DNA of 64,000 bases from NCBI GenBank assembly GCA_020058085.1, contig JAGVER010000010.1, positions 1,549-65,548 of the forward strand, given 5' to 3'. This DNA comes from Candidatus Omnitrophota bacterium (GTDB taxonomy: Bacteria; Omnitrophota; Gorgyraeia; Gygaellales; Profunditerraquicolaceae). Position 1 is the stretch's first letter; each line of letters starts with the position of its first letter. Of the stretch, positions 1-55,292 are shown one piece after another. The notes beneath the pieces are model-generated. The model saw nothing but the letters and a program-made list of their open reading frames with translations, was not told where the DNA came from and made no database searches. The translations under genes were made by a program, and so were the position numbers.

Positions 1-1159
1 CTAATTTCTTGATTAACTTTAAGGCATTCTTCTCCGGATAGTAAAGATAATTTATCTTTAGGCCTAGAAACTGTTTCTTCAAGAGATTAACCATTGGCTT
101 GGTATCGCAAACCAAACAATCTTTAGGAAGAACCAGAGTTAATTGCACCTTCTGGGCTTCTCTAAATAAACAACGGGCATTAGAATTACCTACATTCTGA
201 CAAGAGCCAATGGAACCAGTTTTCTTACATTCAGCGTCAGAGAAACAACGTGGTAATATTGCAAGCACCTCTGGAGCATCGGATATTTCTTCAGATACCC
301 TGATCTCTTCTGCTTTATAATCTAATATCTTCTTATTCTGGATATTTAAAACCACCTTGCCAAGCCTGCGGCCCTGCCATGCCGGCCTTAAGACTATAGT
401 CTTCCCTAATTTAAAAGATATCCCTTTTTTAGAATTCACCTGGCCATCAATAATTATATCTATTCCAGACATTTCGTTAATTAACTTAGCGTCTTCCTCT
501 TCGCCTAAATTACTTAGAAGAATAATAATATCGGCGCCCTCAACTTTAAGTTGCGCGACTGAATCCTTCAGGGCAATCTTTGGTTCGATAATCTTTATAT
601 CTTTTATCTTATCTTTAGCCTTATTGTTTGTGAGCCCGATGATCCCAAACTTAATTCCTGCGGATTCTTTAATGATATACGGCAATACTTTCTCGGATTT
701 CAGATTAGCGGATATAAATCTCAATCTAAATTTATCCGCATTCTCCCCAAAAAACTTTTCTCCAAAATTAAACTCATCTTCGCCTAGATTTACCGCATCA
801 TACTTCATTAACTCCATGGCGCGTAAATTTACAATTGCTCTCTGCATATCTAACTGGGTATTCTGGGTATTTTCATCCAAGAGTCCGGAGCTAAAGAAAT
901 TGCCTGAATCTAATAGTAGGATATCGGGATTATCATTCCTTAATTGCTTAATTAAGGTAGCGCGCCGTGCTACACCGCCATCTGGCTCTATCGGGCAGTG
1001 ACAAGGATAAAGCGTAGCATGGGTTGATCCGGTATAAATTAAAGTAGCTTCTTGAGCAAAAGAACTACTATAATTTAAAGACCAAAAAACGACCGCTATA
1101 AATGAAGCTCCGCGGGCTAAGGCCCGCGGTTTCTTGAAGCGAAATACTTGAGCGGCCAT
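1..1159 (-). CDS. Secreted metallophosphoesterase / 5'-nucleotidase-like protein with Cys-rich C-terminal region; 3' end runs off the window (partial)
   Basis: Absent from the ORF track because there is no stop inside the window. Manual translation from ATG at 1159 gives MAAQVFRFKKPRALARGASFIAVVFWSLNYSSSFAQEATLIYTGSTHATLYPCHCPIEPDGGVARRATLIKQLRNDNPDILLLDSGNFF... and stays open to base 1. The N-terminus looks like a signal peptide. GGxARRATLIKQLR and LLLDSGN resemble UshA-type nucleotidases. The + ORF 357..1001 is its antisense shadow. Confidence 0.55.
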   Translation of the reverse strand, partial: MAAQVFRFKKPRALARGASFIAVVFWSLNYSSSFAQEATLIYTGSTHATLYPCHCPIEPDGGVARRATLIKQLRNDNPDILLLDSGNFFSSGLLDENTQNTQLDMQRAIVNLRAMELMKYDAVNLGEDEFNFGEKFFGENADKFRLRFISANLKSEKVLPYIIKESAGIKFGIIGLTNNKAKDKIKDIKIIEPKIALKDSVAQLKVEGADIIILLSNLGEEEDAKLINEMSGIDIIIDGQVNSKKGISFKLGKTIVLRPAWQGRRLGKVVLNIQNKKILDYKAEEIRVSEEISDAPEVLAILPRCFSDAECKKTGSIGSCQNVGNSNARCLFREAQKVQLTLVLPKDCLVCDTKPMVNLLKKQFLGLKINYLYYPEKNALKLIKKL

Positions 1160-1275
1160 TATCCATCCTTGCCTTAAAAGGCAAGGTCCTTGCGGTAGGC
1201 ACAAGGATTTCGCCGGATAAGGGCTTAAGGATCTCAATTTTAGGCCGCGAAAGTATAAACCTGCTACTTTTCCCC
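1160..1275. promoter_or_regulatory. Hairpin-rich intergenic leader between the serA stop and the next gene start
   Basis: CCTTGCC-TTAAAA-GGCAAGG hairpin at 1167-1186 abuts the SD-like AAGGATGG of the minus-strand gene. A second hairpin TCCTTGCG...CACAAGGA lies at 1187-1207. The style is similar to the hairpin-leader family but the sequence is different. Confidence 0.35.
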
Positions 1276-2862
1276 TCATATTTTTATACTTTTAACTGTT
1301 AAAATATTCTCAAGCTTTTTTATCTTCTGCCCTATCGCAACCGATATCGGGCTGTCGACGTTTAAAACGCTAATTGCCTTGCCATCAGGTTTATCACGGC
1401 CAATAGTCATAGCCGCGATATTTATGCCTTCTTTTCCTAGAAACGTACCCAGGCTACCGATTAAACCCGGCTTATCCCAATTTTCGATATAGGCCATATC
1501 GCCAAGAGGTGTAAACTCTATATAATACTCATCGATCTTAACTATCCTCGGCTGCTTATTACCGGAGAGTGTCCCGGATATAACCCTTGTCTCTTTGTCG
1601 GTTTTGATCTCCAGCTGGATCAAATTTACAAATTCTCCTTCTTTAGAAGACTTAGCCTCTTTGATCTTAATTCCTCTTTCCTTAGCCAAGGAAACAGCGT
1701 TAACGAAATTAACTGTTTCTTTTAATATCGGAAAAAGCAGGCCTTTAGATAAAGCCATCGTCAACGGACTTAAATTATATGTAGATATTTCTCCACTATA
1801 ACTTATATCGATCTCTTGGAATCTCCCCTCGACCAACTGGCCGGAAAATGCGCCCATCCTCTCCGCTAACTTTATATAAGGATCCAGCATTTTGCAAACT
1901 TCAGCTTCCAAGCACGGATAATTCGCAGCATTACGTATTCCCTTACCTAACAAGGCATCGCGCACAATCTCGGCAACTTCAATCGCAACATTTACCTGCG
2001 CCTCTTCAGTAGAAGCGCCCAAATGCGGGGTAACAATAACATTATCCAACTTTAAAAGTTCATTTTCAGGGGTAATCGGTTCTTTCTCAAAAACATCCAA
2101 TGCCGCTCCGGCAACCTTACCCTCTTTTACCGCGTTAATTAAAGCCATCTCATCTATGATCCCGCCTCTTGCGCAGTTAATAACACGCACGCCTTTCTTC
2201 ATTGCGGCAAATTGCTTCTCGGATATCATGTGTTTAGTCTCTTCAGTCATAGGGGTATGCACAGTGATGTAGTCCGCTTGCTGAAATAATTCCTTAAGTT
2301 CCACAACCTCTATTCCCAAAGATTCGGCAACATCGCGTGATAGAAAAGGATCGTATGCTAAAACACGCATCCCGAATGAAAGCGCGCGCTTGGCTACTTC
2401 TTTACCTATTCTGCCGAAACCGATTATACCTAAAACTTTAGCGTAAAGCTCAACTCCCATAAACTTTGAGCGCTTCCATTCACCCTTCTTGGTAGAAGCA
2501 CATGCTTGAGGAATGCTGCGCGAAAGTGAAAGGATCATACTGAACGCATGTTCTGCAGTAGAAATAGTATTTCCACCGGGAGTATTCATAACGATAACGC
2601 CCTTTTGCGTAGCCGCATCAAGATCAACATTATCTAAACCCACACCTGCGCGGCCGATAACTTTAAGCCTTAAAGCAGCGTCAATGATATCCTTAGTTAC
2701 CTTGGTAGCGCTACGCACCAAAAGCGCGTCGTAATCTTTTATTATATCTCTTAGCTGTTCGGGCTTAAGCTCGGTTTTTACATCAACCTGAAATTCTTTA
2801 ATCTCTCTTAAAATTTTTAAACCTTCCTCGGAAAGAGAGTCGCTAACTAGAATCTTAATCAT
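1276..2862 (-). CDS. serA: D-3-phosphoglycerate dehydrogenase (long form with ASB and ACT domains)
   Basis: 528 aa. Rossmann motif [13 protein letters not shown]; catalytic region TVHTPMT...NCARGG...HLGAST; C-terminal ACT-like domain. AAGGAGG SD lies 7 nt upstream of the ATG. Confidence 0.93.
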
Positions 2863-2972
2863 CTATAAACCTCCTTGCCCATAAGGGCACACCCGCGCAA
2901 TTTTCGCCATAAGGTGAACACTGGCCCAATTCCAATAAAGGCCAGGTGCCTTTAAGCGCGGGGTGTTGCACA
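2863..2972. repeat. Structured intergenic repeat, copy A (SD-abutting hairpin plus three-way-junction module)
   Basis: Fills the gap from the TGA of the upstream gene (2973-2975) to the serA SD. TGCCC-ATAA-GGGCA at 2876-2889. The outer stem CACACCCGCGC / GCGCGGGGTGTTG encloses TTCGCC-ATAA-GGTGAA (2903-2918) and CACTGGCC...GGCCAGGTG (2919-2949). About 95% identical to 26591-26690. Confidence 0.8.
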
Positions 2973-4717: not shown

Positions 4718-4814
4718 ATTTACCTCCTTGCGCAGAAGCGCATACTGGCCCGTCCTTTAGGGCCAGGTATTGCCAAAAGGGCACACCGGCCTATCCTTTA
4801 GGGCCGGGTGATTT
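4718..4814. repeat. Structured intergenic repeat, copy B (four consecutive hairpins from the tig stop to the clpP SD)
   Basis: TGCGC-AGAA-GCGCA 4729-4742 abuts the SD complement CCTCCT 4723-4728. TACTGGCCC...GGGCCAGGTA 4743-4769; TGCC-AAAAG-GGCA 4771-4783; CACCGGCC...GGCCGGGTG 4784-4810, followed by a T-run and the TAA complement at 4815-4817. Confidence 0.8.
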
Positions 4815-21157: not shown

Positions 21158-23241
21158 TTTAAAAACTTATCTACCCCTTCAAGCACTTCTTCCGCGGTTA
21201 TCATATTCATACACTTCTTATCTTTACATCTTGCTTTATAGCATGGGCTGCAAGGCAGCTCTTTACGGATGATCAAATAATCTTTTGCCGGAGGCATATG
21301 CCTTAACGGATCAGTCGGCCCGAAAAAAGCAACGATCGGAATCCTCATCGCTACGGCAATATGCAAAGGAGATGAATCAGCGGAAACATAAACAGCGCAA
21401 CGCTTAATCAAACAGGCTAACTGATTAACCGTTGTTTTACCGCAAGCGTTAATTACCTTGACGTTCTTTACCGCATTAACCAGCATATTCGCTTCTGGAA
21501 GATCATCTTCAATGCCTGTGACGACTACACGGATATTCCTTAAACCAAGTTCATCGCAAAACCTGACCATATGCTGCCTGGGCCAACATTTAGTAGCCCA
21601 TCTTTTGCTTGCGCCCATATTTATCCCGACAATCTTTTGGTCATCACTCAACCACTGCGTATTCAATAAATTCTCTATATACTCTTGATCATCTTCAGTA
21701 GGCCATAATTCTAAATGGCTATCTCTTAAATCTATGCCCAGTAACTTTAACATCCTGAATTGATGCTCTACTGGCCCTATCCGAGGCTTATCATCTTTAA
21801 TCCGATAATTAAGTAAAAAACTTAATTTTCTATTATCATACCCATAGCGGTTAAGGCTCAAAGACAAGAATGAAAGCAAGTGGCTTAGGCGATTGTTCTG
21901 AAGATCAATCACTAAATCAAAGTTTTTCTTTCTTAAGATTCGCGCAATGCTTAATAATCCCGCAATACCCTTATCTTTACCTTTAAGGTCAACTACTAAA
22001 AGTTCGTCTATATAGGGGCTCTTAAGCAAGAGATCTTTAGATTCCTCTCCAACCAAGAAACTTATCTTATGATGCACAAACTTTTCTCTTATTGCCCTGA
22101 TCCCGGGTATAGATAAAATAACATCTCCTAAAGAGCTTAACTTAATAATTAATAATCTGGGATTCTCAATAGCATCTAGATAAACCTTAAGTGTATTCTC
22201 TACCATAAGCCCGACATTATACTTCTCTCTCACCTTTAAAATAGCTGCCTCGGCAAGATTAAAAGCTAACTGCGGATCTTTAAATATCTTTATTATTGCC
22301 TCGGCCATACTCGCAGGATCACCGGGAGGGACTAAAAGGCCGTTCTTGTTATTCTCAATAATATCAACAACACCGCCAACTTCTGTGGCCACTACCGGTA
22401 CCCCTGATGCCTGCGCCTCGATAACAACCCTGCCAAAAGCTTCATGAGTAGTAGTTGCAAGCACCAAAAGATCCAAATGCGATAAGATCTCCGGAATATT
22501 CTTTTGTGTTCCTAAGAATTCGGTACAATGGCCAAGCCCCAGTCTTCTGGTTAAAACTTGCACTTGCTCCTTATAGGCCTGATGGGTAGGAGAAGCGTCT
22601 CCGACTACCCAGATTTTTAAAGATGGGACCACCCTGGCAACCTTAGCCATAGCCTTAATAAAATATAAGTGCCCCTTAATAGGCGTAATCCTGCCGATAA
22701 TTGCGATATTAAATTCCTTGCCTCTTTTTTTATTCGGGCTTAAATATTTAAATTTCTCTAAGTCTACGCTCCGAGGTATCAAAGATATTCTGTCATGCGG
22801 CACGGCAAAATCTTCAATCATATGCCGTGCGATAATATTACTTAAAACAATTACCTTCTTTCCCCAGCCCATTACATAACTAAAAGGATGTTTTTTATAA
22901 TAACCGTGACAAGTCGTAATAAAGACGGTTTTAGTCCTACGGCAGGCAAAATAAGCGATCCAAGCTGGCACGCGCGAACGCGCATGTACAATATCTATCT
23001 CCTCTTTTTTTATAATCTCAACTAAAAGAGAAACCATCTTAATCATCGTAAAGAGTGATTTTTTATGAACGGCGAGCTGGTAATGTTTGGCCCCAACCTC
23101 CTCTAAATCTTTAACTAATTTGCCACCGGCAGAGACAACAACTGCCTTATGATTCAAACGCACCAGATACTTGGCTAAATCCAAGGTCCCGGTCTCTACC
23201 CCTCCGACATTTAACTCCGGTAAAATCTGCAGTATGTTCAA
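21154..23241 (-). CDS. GT4 - GT9 two-domain glycosyltransferase fusion
   Basis: The N half has EAFGRVVIEAQASGVPVVATEVGGVVDIIENNKNGLLV. The C half has LLIIKLSSLGDVILSIPGIRAI and SADSSPLHIAVAM. TTG at 23241 with an AAGGAG SD 8 nt upstream is preferred over the ORF-track ATG at 23280, which lies inside a repeat hairpin. Confidence 0.8.
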   Translation of the reverse strand: MNILQILPELNVGGVETGTLDLAKYLVRLNHKAVVVSAGGKLVKDLEEVGAKHYQLAVHKKSLFTMIKMVSLLVEIIKKEEIDIVHARSRVPAWIAYFACRRTKTVFITTCHGYYKKHPFSYVMGWGKKVIVLSNIIARHMIEDFAVPHDRISLIPRSVDLEKFKYLSPNKKRGKEFNIAIIGRITPIKGHLYFIKAMAKVARVVPSLKIWVVGDASPTHQAYKEQVQVLTRRLGLGHCTEFLGTQKNIPEILSHLDLLVLATTTHEAFGRVVIEAQASGVPVVATEVGGVVDIIENNKNGLLVPPGDPASMAEAIIKIFKDPQLAFNLAEAAILKVREKYNVGLMVENTLKVYLDAIENPRLLIIKLSSLGDVILSIPGIRAIREKFVHHKISFLVGEESKDLLLKSPYIDELLVVDLKGKDKGIAGLLSIARILRKKNFDLVIDLQNNRLSHLLSFLSLSLNRYGYDNRKLSFLLNYRIKDDKPRIGPVEHQFRMLKLLGIDLRDSHLELWPTEDDQEYIENLLNTQWLSDDQKIVGINMGASKRWATKCWPRQHMVRFCDELGLRNIRVVVTGIEDDLPEANMLVNAVKNVKVINACGKTTVNQLACLIKRCAVYVSADSSPLHIAVAMRIPIVAFFGPTDPLRHMPPAKDYLIIRKELPCSPCYKARCKDKKCMNMITAEEVLEGVDKFLK

Positions 23242-23315
23242 CTTTATTTCTCCTTGCACAGTAAGTGCATACTGGCCCATCCTTTAAGGCCAGGTATTGC
23301 CCAGTAAGCGCACTT
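23242..23315. repeat. Structured intergenic repeat, copy C (short form)
   Basis: TGCAC-AGTAA-GTGCA 23256-23270 abuts the SD complement. TACTGGCCC...GGCCAGGTA 23271-23298, with the same bulged G as copies A and B. Runs to the stop at 23316-23318. Confidence 0.7.
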
Positions 23316-25301
23316 TTACAATATCTTTTTCAGGGCCTCGCCGACTAAATAACTATCCCTTAGGCAAGGTCTAGCCGGTTTATCGCGCCAAACCGACTTA
23401 ACCGTGTTGCTTAAACCCCCACTTTCAACCAAGTATATATATTTATTCTTAGCAAAATAATTCAGAAGATCTTTATGCTTAAAGCTTAAGGCCGGGGCAT
23501 TAAAGACAAAGACATATTTCTTGCTACTTACCGCTTCAGAGATCATAGATATGCTTTCCGGAGAAGAAATAACAATCTTGCTTAGCCCCAATATACCGCC
23601 TATGGCCTCTGGAATATTCTTTTCATTAGCTACGACCATAAGTTTAATGCGCGGACAATCCTTGAATTCCCTTTTGATGATTTCCTCCACCCCTAAAGAC
23701 GTGCGCCGGGAAGTAGTAACTAAGATTTCAGCGCCTAAGTCCTTAGCTAAAGACTTTACTTCTTTTATCAGATCAGAGATTAATTCACCGGAGAGACGAA
23801 ATCCCTTGCTATCCCCGCCTATCAACAAACCTATGTATAAACTATCTTTATTTAACCCTTGAGATTTAATAAGCCCCACTGATTCTTCTTCTAGGTATTT
23901 ATCATCTATCAGATTAAGCGCGCCTTCAATTGCCTGGATATTCTTTCTTTTTAAAGGACGATCGTGCCGCGGCATAATAACTAAATTAAATTTATCTACC
24001 CCCAATAAAGCCGGACGCAGGATAACGACTGACTTACTTAGATTCTCGCGGGAAAAAATAAAATTTACTCCTGCAATTGAAGAACCCGCCGATATCACTA
24101 TATCCGGCTTAAGCCCTGCCAAGATTCCATAAGTTTTCTCGCTTAAGAATATCTTGAGACACTTAAGGCAACCCTGACAATTGTATCTTCCCGAAAAACA
24201 AACACAGATATTAAATATAAATTTGGCAAATTTATTCTTGAAGTCTATCTCTACTATATTAACCCTGGCCCTGATATTCTTTTCGCTTAACAAATTTTGC
24301 GCTATTTTTGATACTGCCTCTGACTGGCGTAAATGCCCGGTTTTTTTGTCGCTCAAGATAACTATATCTCTCTGGTCAGAATGTTTCCATATCTTATAAG
24401 TCCAAAGATACTCTTTAGGATTCCTACGTATAAAATCTTCAAAAATAGCGACAACCTTCTGGAGATTCTGCTTTATATCCTGATCCTCATCACCGGTCGC
24501 CTCACAAGAGGCGCACTTTGCCTTCCCATAGGCAAAGGTGCCTTTCATTACAATCTCCTTACCCGCCCATACCTTTATCTTCGGCCCGCGGGTACGAACA
24601 AAAAATATCGGAATTAATGCCGAGCCATATTTTAAGGCTAATTTAACCGCTCCTGTAGGCATAGAAGCAGGACGGCCGAAAAAATCAACCAGCGTCCCTG
24701 ACCTACCACCCTGGTCTGCCATCATACCTATAGCCTGATTATTCTTTAAGGCGTTAATTAACCCTCTCAACCCTTGATCACGAGTAATTATCCGGCAATC
24801 TTTATCTTTACGATAATTATTAAGCAAACGGTTTAAACGCGGAAACTTTTGGTCTTTTACAAAGAGAACAAAGGGGAAACCTAAATTCGCAGAGATAACA
24901 TTGGAAAACTCCCAACTTCCGGCATGAACTCCAACCAGGATTGCGCCTTTACCTCTTTTTAAGGCCCCGTTAATATGCTCCACACCTTCAATCTTAATAT
25001 GCTTATCCATATAATTACGATCCACTAATGGAATAAGGAAAACTTCGATAATACTCTGGCCAAATGACTGATAGAATGACCTGGTTAAGCGAGATAATTC
25101 CATGCAGGAAATCCCAGGGCCCAGCGCGAACTTAATATTGGCATAAGCCCTGGCTTTATGTTTAAGGTCAAGATAATAAAAACAATCGCCTAAGCGCCGG
25201 CCTAAGAATAGGCTGGACTCTATGGGTAAAACCCTTAAAATCGGGCCTAAGGTCTTAAAAAGAATACAACCTAAATAATCTGCCAAAAAAAAGTTCTTCA
25301 T
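23316..25301 (-). CDS. Lipid A late acyltransferase (LpxL/HtrB family) fused to an ELM1/DUF1022-like domain
   Basis: 661 aa. The N half has the acyltransferase HAGSWE (HX4E) motif and the MADQGGR region. The C half (LLIGGDSKGFRLS...VTTSRRT) resembles ELM1-family putative glycosyltransferases. Confidence 0.7.
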   Translation of the reverse strand: MKNFFLADYLGCILFKTLGPILRVLPIESSLFLGRRLGDCFYYLDLKHKARAYANIKFALGPGISCMELSRLTRSFYQSFGQSIIEVFLIPLVDRNYMDKHIKIEGVEHINGALKRGKGAILVGVHAGSWEFSNVISANLGFPFVLFVKDQKFPRLNRLLNNYRKDKDCRIITRDQGLRGLINALKNNQAIGMMADQGGRSGTLVDFFGRPASMPTGAVKLALKYGSALIPIFFVRTRGPKIKVWAGKEIVMKGTFAYGKAKCASCEATGDEDQDIKQNLQKVVAIFEDFIRRNPKEYLWTYKIWKHSDQRDIVILSDKKTGHLRQSEAVSKIAQNLLSEKNIRARVNIVEIDFKNKFAKFIFNICVCFSGRYNCQGCLKCLKIFLSEKTYGILAGLKPDIVISAGSSIAGVNFIFSRENLSKSVVILRPALLGVDKFNLVIMPRHDRPLKRKNIQAIEGALNLIDDKYLEEESVGLIKSQGLNKDSLYIGLLIGGDSKGFRLSGELISDLIKEVKSLAKDLGAEILVTTSRRTSLGVEEIIKREFKDCPRIKLMVVANEKNIPEAIGGILGLSKIVISSPESISMISEAVSSKKYVFVFNAPALSFKHKDLLNYFAKNKYIYLVESGGLSNTVKSVWRDKPARPCLRDSYLVGEALKKIL

Positions 25302-26310: not shown

Positions 26311-26583
26311 TTAGAAAACTTTACATAACATAAGTATGCCTATAAGAATAAATGAAGACGCACCGACGTAACGTATTATCTCCGGTTTGATAAATTTCGC
26401 CATAACCGCACCGATGATAACCGAAATAATCGTAACGATGACATAGGCTGAAACCGAGCCTAACCATACTGAAATCGGCTTCCCTGTCTTAGCTGCCATG
26501 CCAATACCGACTAATTGCGTCTTATCCGCTAATTCCGCAAAGAATACCGCTGTAAAAGTAGCTAAAAAGACTCTCCAATCCAT
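26311..26583 (-). CDS. UPF0016 / GDT1-family single-domain membrane protein (putative Mn2+/Ca2+ transporter subunit)
   Basis: Start moved to MDWRVFLATFTAVFFAELADKTQLV (E-x-x-D-K-T signature), with GGAGGAG SD. The first 40 codons of ORF 26311..26703 read through the repeat element and are discounted. Confidence 0.75.
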   Translation of the reverse strand: MDWRVFLATFTAVFFAELADKTQLVGIGMAAKTGKPISVWLGSVSAYVIVTIISVIIGAVMAKFIKPEIIRYVGASSFILIGILMLCKVF

Positions 26584-26735
26584 GATTCTCCTCCTTGCCC
26601 ATAAGGGCACACCCGCGCAATTTTCGCCATAAGGCGAACACTGGCCCAATCCCAATAAGGGCCAGGTGCCTATAAGCGTGGGGTGTTGCGCAGAAGCGCA
26701 CACCGGCCTCTCCTCTTAGGCCGGGTGACATTTTT
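26584..26735. repeat. Structured intergenic repeat, copy A' (three-way junction plus two extra hairpins)
   Basis: 26591-26690 is ~95% identical to 2871-2970. It is extended by TGCGC-AGAA-GCGCA 26687-26700, CACCGGCC...GGCCGGGTG 26701-26727, and T6 at 26731-26736. Confidence 0.85.
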
Positions 26736-37849: not shown

Positions 37850-38098
37850 ATTAAACCTCCTTGCGCAGTAGCGCACATCCCGCAGAAAACGGGATACTCG
37901 ACATTCGCCTCAGATGAGGCGCACTTTGCCTCGATTGGCAAAGGTGCATTTATGTCGAGGTACCGGCCTCTCGCCCAGAATGGGCCGCCCCCTGAAGGGA
38001 ACGCTTGGCAATCGCTTCAGAAGAAGCGTACTTTGCTTTCAAATAGGCAAAGGTACATTTATGCCAAGGTGCAAATAAGGCCGGGTGCTAACACTTTC
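37850..38098. repeat. Structured intergenic repeat, copy D (249 nt; two tandem three-way-junction modules plus flanking hairpins)
   Basis: TGCGC-AGTA-GCGCA 37862-37875; ATCCCG..CGGGAT 37877-37895. Module M1 37897-37959 and module M2 38004-38068. Outer stem GTACCGGCC 37960-37968 / GGCCGGGTGC 38079-38088. Spans the SNase stop to the aroC SD. Confidence 0.85.
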
Positions 38099-53650: not shown

Positions 53651-53724
53651 TCCCAGTAACTAATATTCTCATATAATTGTTTCCACAATCATCTTTTAAT
53701 TAAATCTATTGCGTAATTCCAGGA

Positions 53725-53985
53725 CTACGAATAAACTTCTTTCCTATGGCTTATCCGTAAAATATAAATCAAAATTTCCTTCTCCGCTATCTTGTAGATT
53801 ACGCGATAATCTCCCCAACGATATCGCCAATAACCTTGAAAATCGCCTTTTAATGACTTACCTAGACCCTTAGGATCTTTAGCAAGATAGGTTTCAATAC
53901 GATTAAGGATCTTCTTAGCTATGGATTTATCGAGTTTCTTAAGATCCTCTTCGATAGAATCAAGATAAGAAACTTTATAAACCAA
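53725..53985 (-). CDS. Type II toxin, RelE/ParE family
   Basis: 86 aa. WRYRWGDYRVIYKI...ILIYILRISHRKEVY is the RelE/ParE fold pattern. 11-nt overlap with the upstream antitoxin gene. Confidence 0.85.
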   Translation of the reverse strand: MVYKVSYLDSIEEDLKKLDKSIAKKILNRIETYLAKDPKGLGKSLKGDFQGYWRYRWGDYRVIYKIAEKEILIYILRISHRKEVYS

Positions 53986-54193
53986 GCCTATTCCTCAACT
54001 CTTTGGCAGAAATAATTTTAGATTTGGGATCGCTGAAACGATCCTTGGCAATCTGTGCATCGGCATAATCTTCCAAATAGTGCGCCAAAGCATCAGTAAC
54101 ATAAAAAGTTTCGCTTCGACGCGTAGCTTTTGCCAATGAGGTTAGCCTATTAACTAATCCAACAGGTAAACGAAATGCTTTTAATAAGGTCAT
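53975..54193 (-). CDS. Type II antitoxin (ribbon-helix-helix type)
   Basis: 72 aa. The N-terminal beta-strand FRLPVGLVNRL, followed by helices, is typical of RHH. Precedes and overlaps the toxin gene. Confidence 0.75.
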   Translation of the reverse strand: MTLLKAFRLPVGLVNRLTSLAKATRRSETFYVTDALAHYLEDYADAQIAKDRFSDPKSKIISAKELRNRLGL

Positions 54194-54218
54194 GTTTTCA
54201 ACCTCCTCTCACAATAAG

Positions 54219-54247
54219 AGTATAACACTGTTATACAAGTATTGCAA
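54219..54247 (-). promoter_or_regulatory. Promoter with embedded palindromic operator for the TA operon
   Basis: Minus strand TTGCAA (54242-54247) - 17 nt - TATACT (54219-54224). The spacer contains the inverted repeat GTATAAC-A-G-TGTTATAC (54220-54236). GAGGAGG SD downstream. Confidence 0.55.
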
Positions 54248-54264
54248 GATTATTTTTTACATCC

Positions 54265-55140: not shown

Positions 55141-55292
55141 ACCCCACCTCCTGTAAGTGCACATCCCGCAGAAAGCGGGATACTCGACATTCATTTATGT
55201 CGATGTACCGGCCTCTTAGATATTGAGCACCTTATGCTTTAATCTAGCGAAATCCTTGATCGAACACAAGTGAGATCAAGGAAGGCCGGGTG
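55141..55292. repeat. Structured intergenic repeat, copy E
   Basis: ATCCCGC..GCGGGAT 55163-55181. CTCGACAT-TC-ATTTATGTCGA 55183-55203 is the M1 outer stem with the two inner hairpins absent. Outer GTACCGGCC 55205-55213 / GGCCGGGTGT 55284-55293 encloses TCCTTGATC...GATCAAGGA. Runs from the purM TAA to the SD. Confidence 0.8.

Follow-up and report, generated by a model that had tools for sequence, protein, structure and literature searches.

Two near-identical structured elements lie immediately upstream of serA and of a GDT1/UPF0016 gene in a 64-kb stretch of an Omnitrophota contig (64,000 nucleotides, hereafter called the “window”). Each of these “100-nt elements” is one ~45-nt two-hairpin module sitting inside the hairpin-1 loop of a second module, and both copies were recently inserted. 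The modules form an undescribed family of interspersed GC-rich palindromic repeats across AT-rich Omnitrophota genomes; this family is lineage-specific, structured and positionally constrained, and we found no description of it in Rfam or in the searchable literature on Omnitrophota/Omnitrophica. We consider it probable that the element is a non-autonomous palindromic repeat, which spreads at the DNA level and survives where its fold leaves the stop codon and the Shine-Dalgarno (SD) sequence usable. The mechanism of its mobility and any effect on expression we infer.

A two-hairpin module nested in a second module

The preliminary description of this DNA had reported a near-identity of about 100 nt between the serA and UPF0016 leaders, and the alignment confirms it. 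Positions 2870-2972 align with 26590-26692 over 103 nt at 94% identity and with no gap, differing at five positions within the 100-nt core and at 5–6 overall; the pair constitutes repeat family D1, the longest repeat of the window. The RNA sense of both copies is the minus strand, the same as that of the downstream genes: serA, encoding the 528-aa D-3-phosphoglycerate dehydrogenase (1276-2862, minus strand), and the gene for a 90-aa GDT1/UPF0016 protein (26311-26583, minus strand). The 3′ end of both copies reads UGCCC-UUAU-GGGCA, followed directly by AGGAGG, 6–7 nt and the ATG, so the terminal hairpin abuts the downstream AAGGAGG at both loci, as had been claimed.

Could this similarity be an artefact of assembly, with duplicated or chimeric contig ends? 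Only the general tendency of repeats to break assemblies speaks for this possibility, which had been raised at the outset. Both copies are internal to the window, their flanks are unique and collinear with those of relatives, and they differ at 5–6 positions; they are therefore not a collapsed or duplicated contig end. Two sequences that do start just upstream of the GDT1 gene (L073 and L074, by 27 and 35 nt) nevertheless have an empty site as their leader, and the architecture recurs in dozens of independent assemblies. The probability of an artefact is practically negligible.

In the predicted fold of both copies, an outer helix, ACACCCCGCGC/GCGCGGGUGU, surrounds two hairpins. The first, CACCUGGCC..GGCCAGUG, contains a bulged C that corresponds to a G on the plus strand; the second is UCRCC-UUAU-GGCGA. 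The SD sequence is unpaired in the predicted folds of both leaders.

How is this fold built? A scan of a genome collection with the pattern GTRTGCSCTNNTGSGCAAGGAGG, which represents the 3′ end of the element plus the SD, returned 67 loci; many further copies exist in other genomes. The commonest form among the matches is a simple module of ~45 nt. Its consensus begins with A and hairpin 1—(C/U)ACC(C)CCGCGC, a ~12-nt loop UUAUAAGGAAUU, and GCGCGGGU(G/A)—and continues with U, the short hairpin 2 (GCCC-UUNU-GGGC) and A, after which come AGGAGG, 5–9 nt and the start codon. From an alignment of 44 distinct simple modules, in which 98% of the cells are paired and 8 of the 13 pairs change on both sides, we built the covariance model R1. 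In the window, R1 finds six strong modules, all on the minus strand, including the inner module of the serA copy and that of the GDT1 copy. The 100-nt element is therefore a pair of nested modules, with the following layout.

2876..2966, minus strand: composite of the serA leader, from sequence and fold; outer hairpin-1 arms at 2956-2965 and 2890-2898, hairpin 2 at 2877-2888
2876-2898, minus strand: outer 3′ half of the serA composite, a partial R1 match
2903..2949, minus strand: inner module of the serA composite, GCACCUGGCC..GGCCAGUG-U-UCACC-UUAU-GGCGA-A; R1 37.3 bits, E = 1.5e-7
2870..2876, minus strand: SD AAGGAGG of serA, starting straight after hairpin 2; ATG at 2860-2862
26596..26686, minus strand: composite of the GDT1/UPF0016 leader, the paralogous copy, from sequence and fold; its outer 3′ part is an R1 match (26596-26618)
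26623-26669, minus strand: inner module of the GDT1 composite; R1 E = 1.9e-8
26687..26728, minus strand: simple module adjoining the GDT1 composite on its 5′ side, UCACCCGGCC..GGCCGGUG-U-GCGC-UUCU-GCGC-A; R1 44.2 bits, E = 3e-9
26590..26596, minus strand: SD AAGGAGG of the GDT1 gene; ATG at 26581-26583

Both hairpins of the module covary strongly. In the simple modules of the alignment, 7 of the 9 pairs of hairpin 1 change on both sides, as in CCCCGCGC/GCGCGGG, CCCGGCGC/GCGCCGG and CCCAAUC/GAUUGG and in the replacement of the closing pair C-G by U-A, and the CACC/GGUG head with the bulged C is conserved, with covariation. For hairpin 2, the changes appear in a second scan, made on metagenomes with hairpin 1 alone and the SD left out of the pattern (56 loci, 50 distinct contexts), where GCCC/GGGC, GUGC/GCAC, GUGU/ACAC and ACCC/GGGU occur. 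Both helices are also retained in eleven nested composites, taken from different genomes, where 98% of the cells are paired and double-sided changes affect nine pairs. G·U and A·C mismatches in the modules number 21 and 14, respectively, counts that do not tell which strand is the functional one.

The nesting recurs independently at the identical loop position, with the inner and outer types of L097 and L101 swapped relative to those of the window, and the junction strands of a composite are simply the two halves of the interrupted outer loop. The three-way junction of the preliminary description, with its bulged G, is found in the fold, but it does not belong to one element with a dedicated junction: a 45-nt module is nested in the loop of another.

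A three-way junction with covariation in P1 and P2, placed in 5′ leaders beside the ribosome-binding site (RBS), resembles a riboswitch or another signal-sensing leader common to serA and the GDT1 transporter. However, no predicted fold sequesters the SD, the inner arm is optional and interchangeable, with simple and nested forms at orthologous sites, and the junction strands have the trivial origin given above. The downstream genes are unrelated, and the element is missing before the same genes in close relatives. Rfam 15 yields 0 matches in the whole window at its gathering thresholds; in E-value mode, around the element and at 900-1400, only chance-level matches appear, the best for the element being the leu/phe leader with 15 bits (threshold 70) and E = 4. 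The proteins encoded downstream of modules match 68 Pfam families, so that no single ligand makes sense. A ligand-sensing leader, already judged unlikely in the preliminary description, is extremely improbable, and we rejected it.

Several other identities were tried and likewise rejected. The element lacks the tandem G·A pairs of a k-turn and the GTTRRRY core of an integron attC site, and the genes that flank it are core housekeeping genes. An RNA thermometer would pair the SD, which is not paired. The loop does not qualify as a promoter, as its TATAAG-like hexamer is not conserved, and a promoter scan of both loci gave nothing relevant.

Recent insertion at the serA and GDT1 loci

The serC-serA junction is 110 nt long in the window. 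In five junctions of relatives it has no module and measures 14–17 nt; the SerA proteins of these empty-site relatives are 95% (L001), 93% (L079/L080), 89% (L002) and 86% (L004/L005) identical to that of the window. The alignment places ~100 extra nt between the serC stop codon and the GGAGG of the window, and the GGAGG before serA is already present at the empty sites of the relatives. Module-free leaders also precede GDT1 in three sets of orthologues, with proteins 89% (L073/L074), 86% (L075/L076) and 84% (L077/L078) identical. In L074, the GDT1 leader reads AAAATG|GAGGTTAATAAGCATG at the place where the window has ~146 nt of modules. Gene tables further list two relatives with a 92–93% identical GDT1 and spacers of 125–135 nt, versus ~260 nt in the window. 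This empty-site comparison, proposed beforehand as a way to check the copying, clearly favours recent copying at both loci.

In L075 (3905-3960) and L077 (2920-2975), both module-free, a stretch of ~50 nt (CCTAAAATCATTTGCYTGGGTG..GATATCATATTT) upstream of GDT1 is conserved and is absent from the leader of the window. This stretch may represent a promoter or a leader element of a different kind.

The nesting step can be followed at GDT1. In L113, a contig from Hainich groundwater, the upstream promoter-like region, the first module (the simple module 26687-26728, which is absent from L074, L075 and L077) and the outer module are all arranged as in the window. The outer loop of L113 is intact (TTATAAGGAATT) and the inner 45–46 nt are missing; the insertion point in the window is TTATAAGG^AATT. 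L113, a close relative, carries the un-nested precursor state, from which the window differs by a unit-length insertion.

When did the composite reach its second locus? The two copies are 94% identical, whereas the window and its closest relative reach an identity of only 0.71 at synonymous sites. Provided that the copies evolve neutrally, the copying must have taken place long after that split. The serA copy retains UGUGCA, the 3′ part of a preceding short hairpin, matching the arrangement at GDT1, and its sequence suggests that it was derived from a tandem context like the one found there. Of the two alternatives originally offered for the near-identity, the empty sites support recent copying; purifying selection may still act at the level of the family, in which orthologous modules are conserved above synonymous sites. 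We reconstruct the following history.

Settlement: Two modules first settled in the GDT1 leader.

Nesting: A third module, of unit length, then entered the loop of the second one. Such an insertion into the loop of a resident module produces the apparent three-way junction.

Copying: Finally, a copy of the composite would have entered the junction of serC and serA, immediately before the GGAGG that already stood there.

Range, placement and spread of the family

Among the 67 loci of the genome scan, 61 are labelled Omnitrophota, or “uncultured Planctomycetales” in third-party annotation (TPA) records, and the remaining six lie in coding sequence and match by chance. The same module-plus-SD pattern gave 0 matches in the viral contigs scanned. 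By its sequence matches, the family is restricted to Omnitrophota. An exact 32-mer across the inner/outer junction of the composite has 0 matches in the metagenome collection, and the strain of the window is apparently not among its members.

Single, tandem (up to ~9), nested and in-frame intragenic modules all occur. Between tig and clpP, the number and nesting of the modules differ among the window, L002, L004 and L030. Orthologous sites carry simple versus nested forms at atpB-atpE (L041 vs L037/L059), at a ferredoxin gene (L014 vs L060) and again at tig-clpP (L002 vs L004). In the metagenome-assembled genome SO_2017_SWC_55, the interior of a composite lies in opposite orientations at two loci (L006 5076-5137 and L068 4382-4462, 44/45 identical), consistent with an inversion between the arms of the outer hairpin. 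The longest array fills the 555-nt spacer between the genes for S3 and L16 in L126 (2938-3492) with ~9 tandem modules, including five near-identical ~50-nt units, each with an SD-like GAAGGAG or CAAGGAA. Within coding sequence, a 14-codon module in the sense orientation is found in frame in a PurQ-like glutamine amidotransferase (L062 3736-3777), where it forms an extra segment relative to PDB 3d54; two tandem sense modules apparently lie within the reading frame of a HycI-like protease, near the N-terminus (L008 66-148). Because orthologous spacers vary and nesting, inversion, in-frame insertion and arrays occur, the module behaves like the REP/BIME, BOX and Rickettsia palindromic element (RPE) repeats.

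Where do the modules settle? First, in the scan with the SD-free pattern, a short second hairpin comes after hairpin 1 almost without exception, and in 37 of the 50 contexts (A)AGGAG and a start codon adjoin this short hairpin; the others consist of nested or tandem modules and of copies at 3′ ends next to a convergent terminator. Second, an upstream stop codon lies within 2 nt of the module in about one-quarter of the model matches and in nearly half of the metagenome contexts. Third, most genes of the window have weak or no SD complementarity (3–5 nt), and the strong AAGGAGG(U) is almost confined to genes preceded by a module: matches of 6–8 nt to AAGGAGGUGA are found in 6/6 of the latter versus 4/51 of the others (Fisher p = 6e-6). 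The 66 proteins encoded downstream of modules include typically abundant ones, such as ATP synthase c, DnaK, ClpP, Skp, ACP, L19 and P-II, with EF-Tu, S3 and L6 in the metagenome set. Finally, the hairpin-1 loop carries an SD/CsrA-like GGA in most copies, ~31 nt from the SD AAGGAGG, a distance we compared with the CsrA-type layout; this GGA is missing in about one-quarter of the copies and in the outer loops of composites.

GC-rich stems located after stop codons could be taken for intergenic transcription terminators or attenuators. Yet no U-tract follows either hairpin, AAGGAGG comes directly after hairpin 2, and a terminator scan finds none at the serA or GDT1 locus. Moreover, modules lie within essential operons (S3-L16, atpB-atpE), in which termination would be lethal. 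We therefore rejected the intrinsic terminator, and the hairpins are very improbable as terminators or attenuators of any kind.

The placement bears more directly on another explanation, in which the module is a selected, portable expression cassette that raises or tunes the translation and stability of the downstream cistron. Mobility would then merely distribute it, so that this explanation does not exclude spreading. Hairpin 2 might stack coaxially on the SD/anti-SD helix, the SD-like UAAGGA in the loop might be a standby site, or a dedicated RNA-binding protein (for instance a CsrA-like one, contacting the GGA of the loop and of the SD) might recognise the cassette. The sense orientation and the zero-nucleotide spacing to AGGAGG in 37 of the 50 contexts agree with it, as do the SD-like GGA in the loop of most copies and the concentration of the strongest SDs, amid mostly weak ones, at genes preceded by modules. 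Modules also persist at orthologous sites before typically abundant proteins, with conservation far above that of synonymous sites and with compensatory changes. On the other hand, close relatives do without the module at both serA and GDT1, modules also occur within coding sequences and at 3′ ends beside convergent terminators, the interior of a composite can be inverted, and the GGA, where it is not absent altogether, is destroyed by nesting. A selected cassette is possible but, on this balance, unlikely. In its boldest form, the family would be a phylum-wide mobile “ribosome-docking cassette”, a 45-nt RNA that sits on the 30S platform beside a perfect SD helix or binds a dedicated protein. 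If this were true, the cassette would turn a junction between a stop codon and a GGAGG into a high-efficiency, nuclease-protected start; as most genes in these AT-rich genomes have weak SDs, its transposition would re-tune the relative expression of cistrons, and nesting in its own SD-like loop would simply follow from that targeting. We regard this form as speculative and rather doubtful.

How well does the reading we favour, a non-autonomous repeat spreading as DNA, fit the whole of the data? Several observations weigh against it. The modules between grpE and dnaK in L053 and L061 are identical at 41 of 46 positions, with the same unusual loop in both and a C-G pair that is replaced in a compensatory way by A-U, although the third codon positions of dnaK are only 0.54 identical. 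Orthologous modules are conserved far better than synonymous sites, which suggests that selection acts on the sequence itself. Identical 46-mers are moreover found in different species; together with the orthologous conservation, they mean that the sequence is under constraint, which could come from a mobilising enzyme (the situation of REPs) or from an RNA function. The module identity is 0.768 within and 0.747 between genomes, which is not a significant difference (permutation p = 0.12), and thus there is no signal of a within-genome burst. No transposase or other mobilising enzyme was identified in the annotated neighbourhoods, which are genome fragments of up to 21.6 kb, although no search directed at RAYT was made. 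No target-site duplication is visible at three filled/empty comparisons, and the three filled/empty pairs and the nested sites yield no general target consensus: the insertion sites share only the position in the loop (after AAGG, before AATT) and the placement directly 5′ of GGAGG. The copy number per genome is an extrapolation, of ~1 module per 5–10 kb of unselected sequence. Nearly all copies are in the sense orientation, and a purely selfish element explains the link with the strongest SDs of the window only through survivorship.

We nevertheless prefer DNA-level spreading, and propose that it operates as follows.

Multiplication: The modules would multiply as non-autonomous units, either with a trans-acting enzyme or by copying or gene conversion between copies.

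Persistence: Copies would persist only where they are harmless: between a stop codon and the strong SD that follows it, inside the loop of a module already in place, in tandem, or, occasionally, as in-frame insertions in parts of proteins that tolerate them. The sense bias could result from selection, as the reverse complement places an anti-SD UCCUU loop beside the SD, or from strand-specific insertion.

Co-transcription: The module would be transcribed with its host operon and fold autonomously, leaving the RBS single-stranded, and its terminal AA would extend the SD by two pairs. As an RNA, it is probably a passive insulator and exonuclease barrier, not a switch; it may stabilise the mRNA or insulate translation.

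Known repeat systems and further modules in the window

REP, BIME and REPIN sequences are palindromes mobilised by RAYT transposases in Enterobacteria and Pseudomonas (PMC3116915, PMC3337134). Like REP/BIME, the modules are short, GC-rich, imperfect palindromes with a conserved head (CACC...GGUG) and a bulge; they are extragenic, located within operons, arrayed, non-autonomous and conserved across related species, and by analogy their co-transcription would be expected to block exonucleases. In contrast to REPINs, they occur singly, in direct tandem or nested in the same orientation, with no inverted doublet, and the sole inversion is that of one composite interior. A REP has no second short tetraloop hairpin, and it lies simply downstream of genes, whereas the modules are wedged tightly between stop codon and strong SD and also occur in frame within genes.

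The BOX, RUP and SPRITE elements of Streptococcus pneumoniae (reviewed in PMC10969869) are likewise modular intergenic stem-loops near gene starts, with a variable number of sub-units and insertion into one another, and effects on the expression of neighbouring genes have been proposed for them. They are unrelated in sequence and phylum; the 45-nt unit is much smaller, nests precisely in its own loop and is tied to the SD. The RPEs, of ~150 bp, are mostly intragenic (PMC10969869), and the in-frame palindromic insertions in the PurQ-like protein, in LpxL and in the protein encoded after serA recall them in behaviour, not in homology. Intragenic copies are a minority in our family, and the gap between stop codon and SD is the main niche. 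By analogy, the family would work like the REP, BOX and RPE repeats, and we do not assign it to any of them. Set beside classical miniature inverted-repeat transposable elements, the module has hairpin-1 arms that can be read as inverted repeats, no visible target-site duplication at the three filled/empty comparisons and no known parent IS element.

Stabilising 5′ hairpins and STAB-SD leaders, known from the 5′ untranslated region of Escherichia coli ompA and from Bacillus aprE and cryIIIA, protect the 5′ segments of mRNAs and support high expression. The modules may be compared with them in having a stable hairpin directly 5′ of a strong, exposed SD and an SD-like sequence upstream. Those leaders are single-locus features, while the modules are a dispersed, self-nesting repeat family. 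What distinguishes the family is the combination of a small two-hairpin unit, self-nesting in its own loop, a flush fit between stop codon and strong SD, and phylum-wide conservation.

Omnitrophota are abundant, uncultivated, ultra-small bacteria, and to our knowledge almost nothing is known about their gene expression. The repeat family accounts for conspicuous GC-rich structured leaders that would otherwise be mis-annotated as riboswitch candidates, and with its consensus and R1 others can mask or annotate the modules. These may serve as markers of strain-level genome dynamics and may break assemblies, and an in-frame insertion can lengthen or alter a protein. Their strict positional rule, obeyed even between ribosomal protein genes, shows which RNA structure an RBS can tolerate or exploit. 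Should the modules increase expression or stability, they would offer small, portable building blocks for designing synthetic operons.

The window, which SerA and GDT1 homologues place in Candidatus Omnitrophota, has 40% G+C and nearly all of its genes on the minus strand, and contains at least eight modules. GC-rich hairpin spacers of similar grammar occur at 4718-4814, 23241-23315, 26687-26728, 37850-38098 and 55141-55292, and in coding sequence at 24497-24545. The features beyond the serA and GDT1 leaders are the following.

4729..4811, minus strand: tandem pair of modules that takes up the tig-clpP spacer as far as the AAGGAGG of clpP; R1 E = 5.5e-11 and 1.4e-8
23255..23297, minus strand: module upstream of a glycosyltransferase gene; R1 E = 6e-8
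37850..38098, minus strand: aroC leader, in which several modules of a related sub-family are nested, with GCGC-UACU-GCGC-A-AGGAGG at its end; from repeats, with R1 E = 0.018 at 37862-37897
55141..55292, minus strand: leader of an SPFH/Band-7 gene, with nested GC-rich hairpins of a related sub-family; repeat match, R1 E = 0.11
24497..24545, minus strand: module-like element of the aroC-leader sub-family within the LpxL/Elm1 fusion gene (open reading frame (ORF) 23316-25301), 93% identical to 37905-37931
1104..1256, minus strand: GC-rich multi-hairpin insertion of a related kind, 153 nt, which adds 51 codons without a stop to the reading frame of the gene after serA

The kinship of the two leaders with the aroC-leader modules, noted in the preliminary description, extends to several of these sites; the aroC gene of another genome (L027) has a simple module at the corresponding place. 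The LpxL/Elm1 protein of the window has 14 extra aa at its module relative to the orthologues in L075 and L077. These orthologues have an extra repetitive segment of their own, PEGRGLASDSQSHWPKGRGLAS (alignment columns 449-467), which the window protein lacks and which may likewise stem from a repeat inserted in frame.

The 153-nt insertion at 1104-1256 is absent from L001, L079 and L002. It falls in the signal-peptide region of a 577-aa protein that has no Pfam domains in the relatives, and part of it, 1202-1238, recurs in inverted orientation in the SPFH leader at 55222-55258. It also contains a hairpin followed by AAGGA and an ATG (GGCAAGGATGGATAATG), and this ATG could, from the sequence, be a new start.

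Unrelated to the modules, an apparently intergenic stretch of 614 nt (53651-54264, minus strand) holds two small ORFs, which by eye resemble a RelB/ParD-type antitoxin and a RelE/ParE-type toxin.

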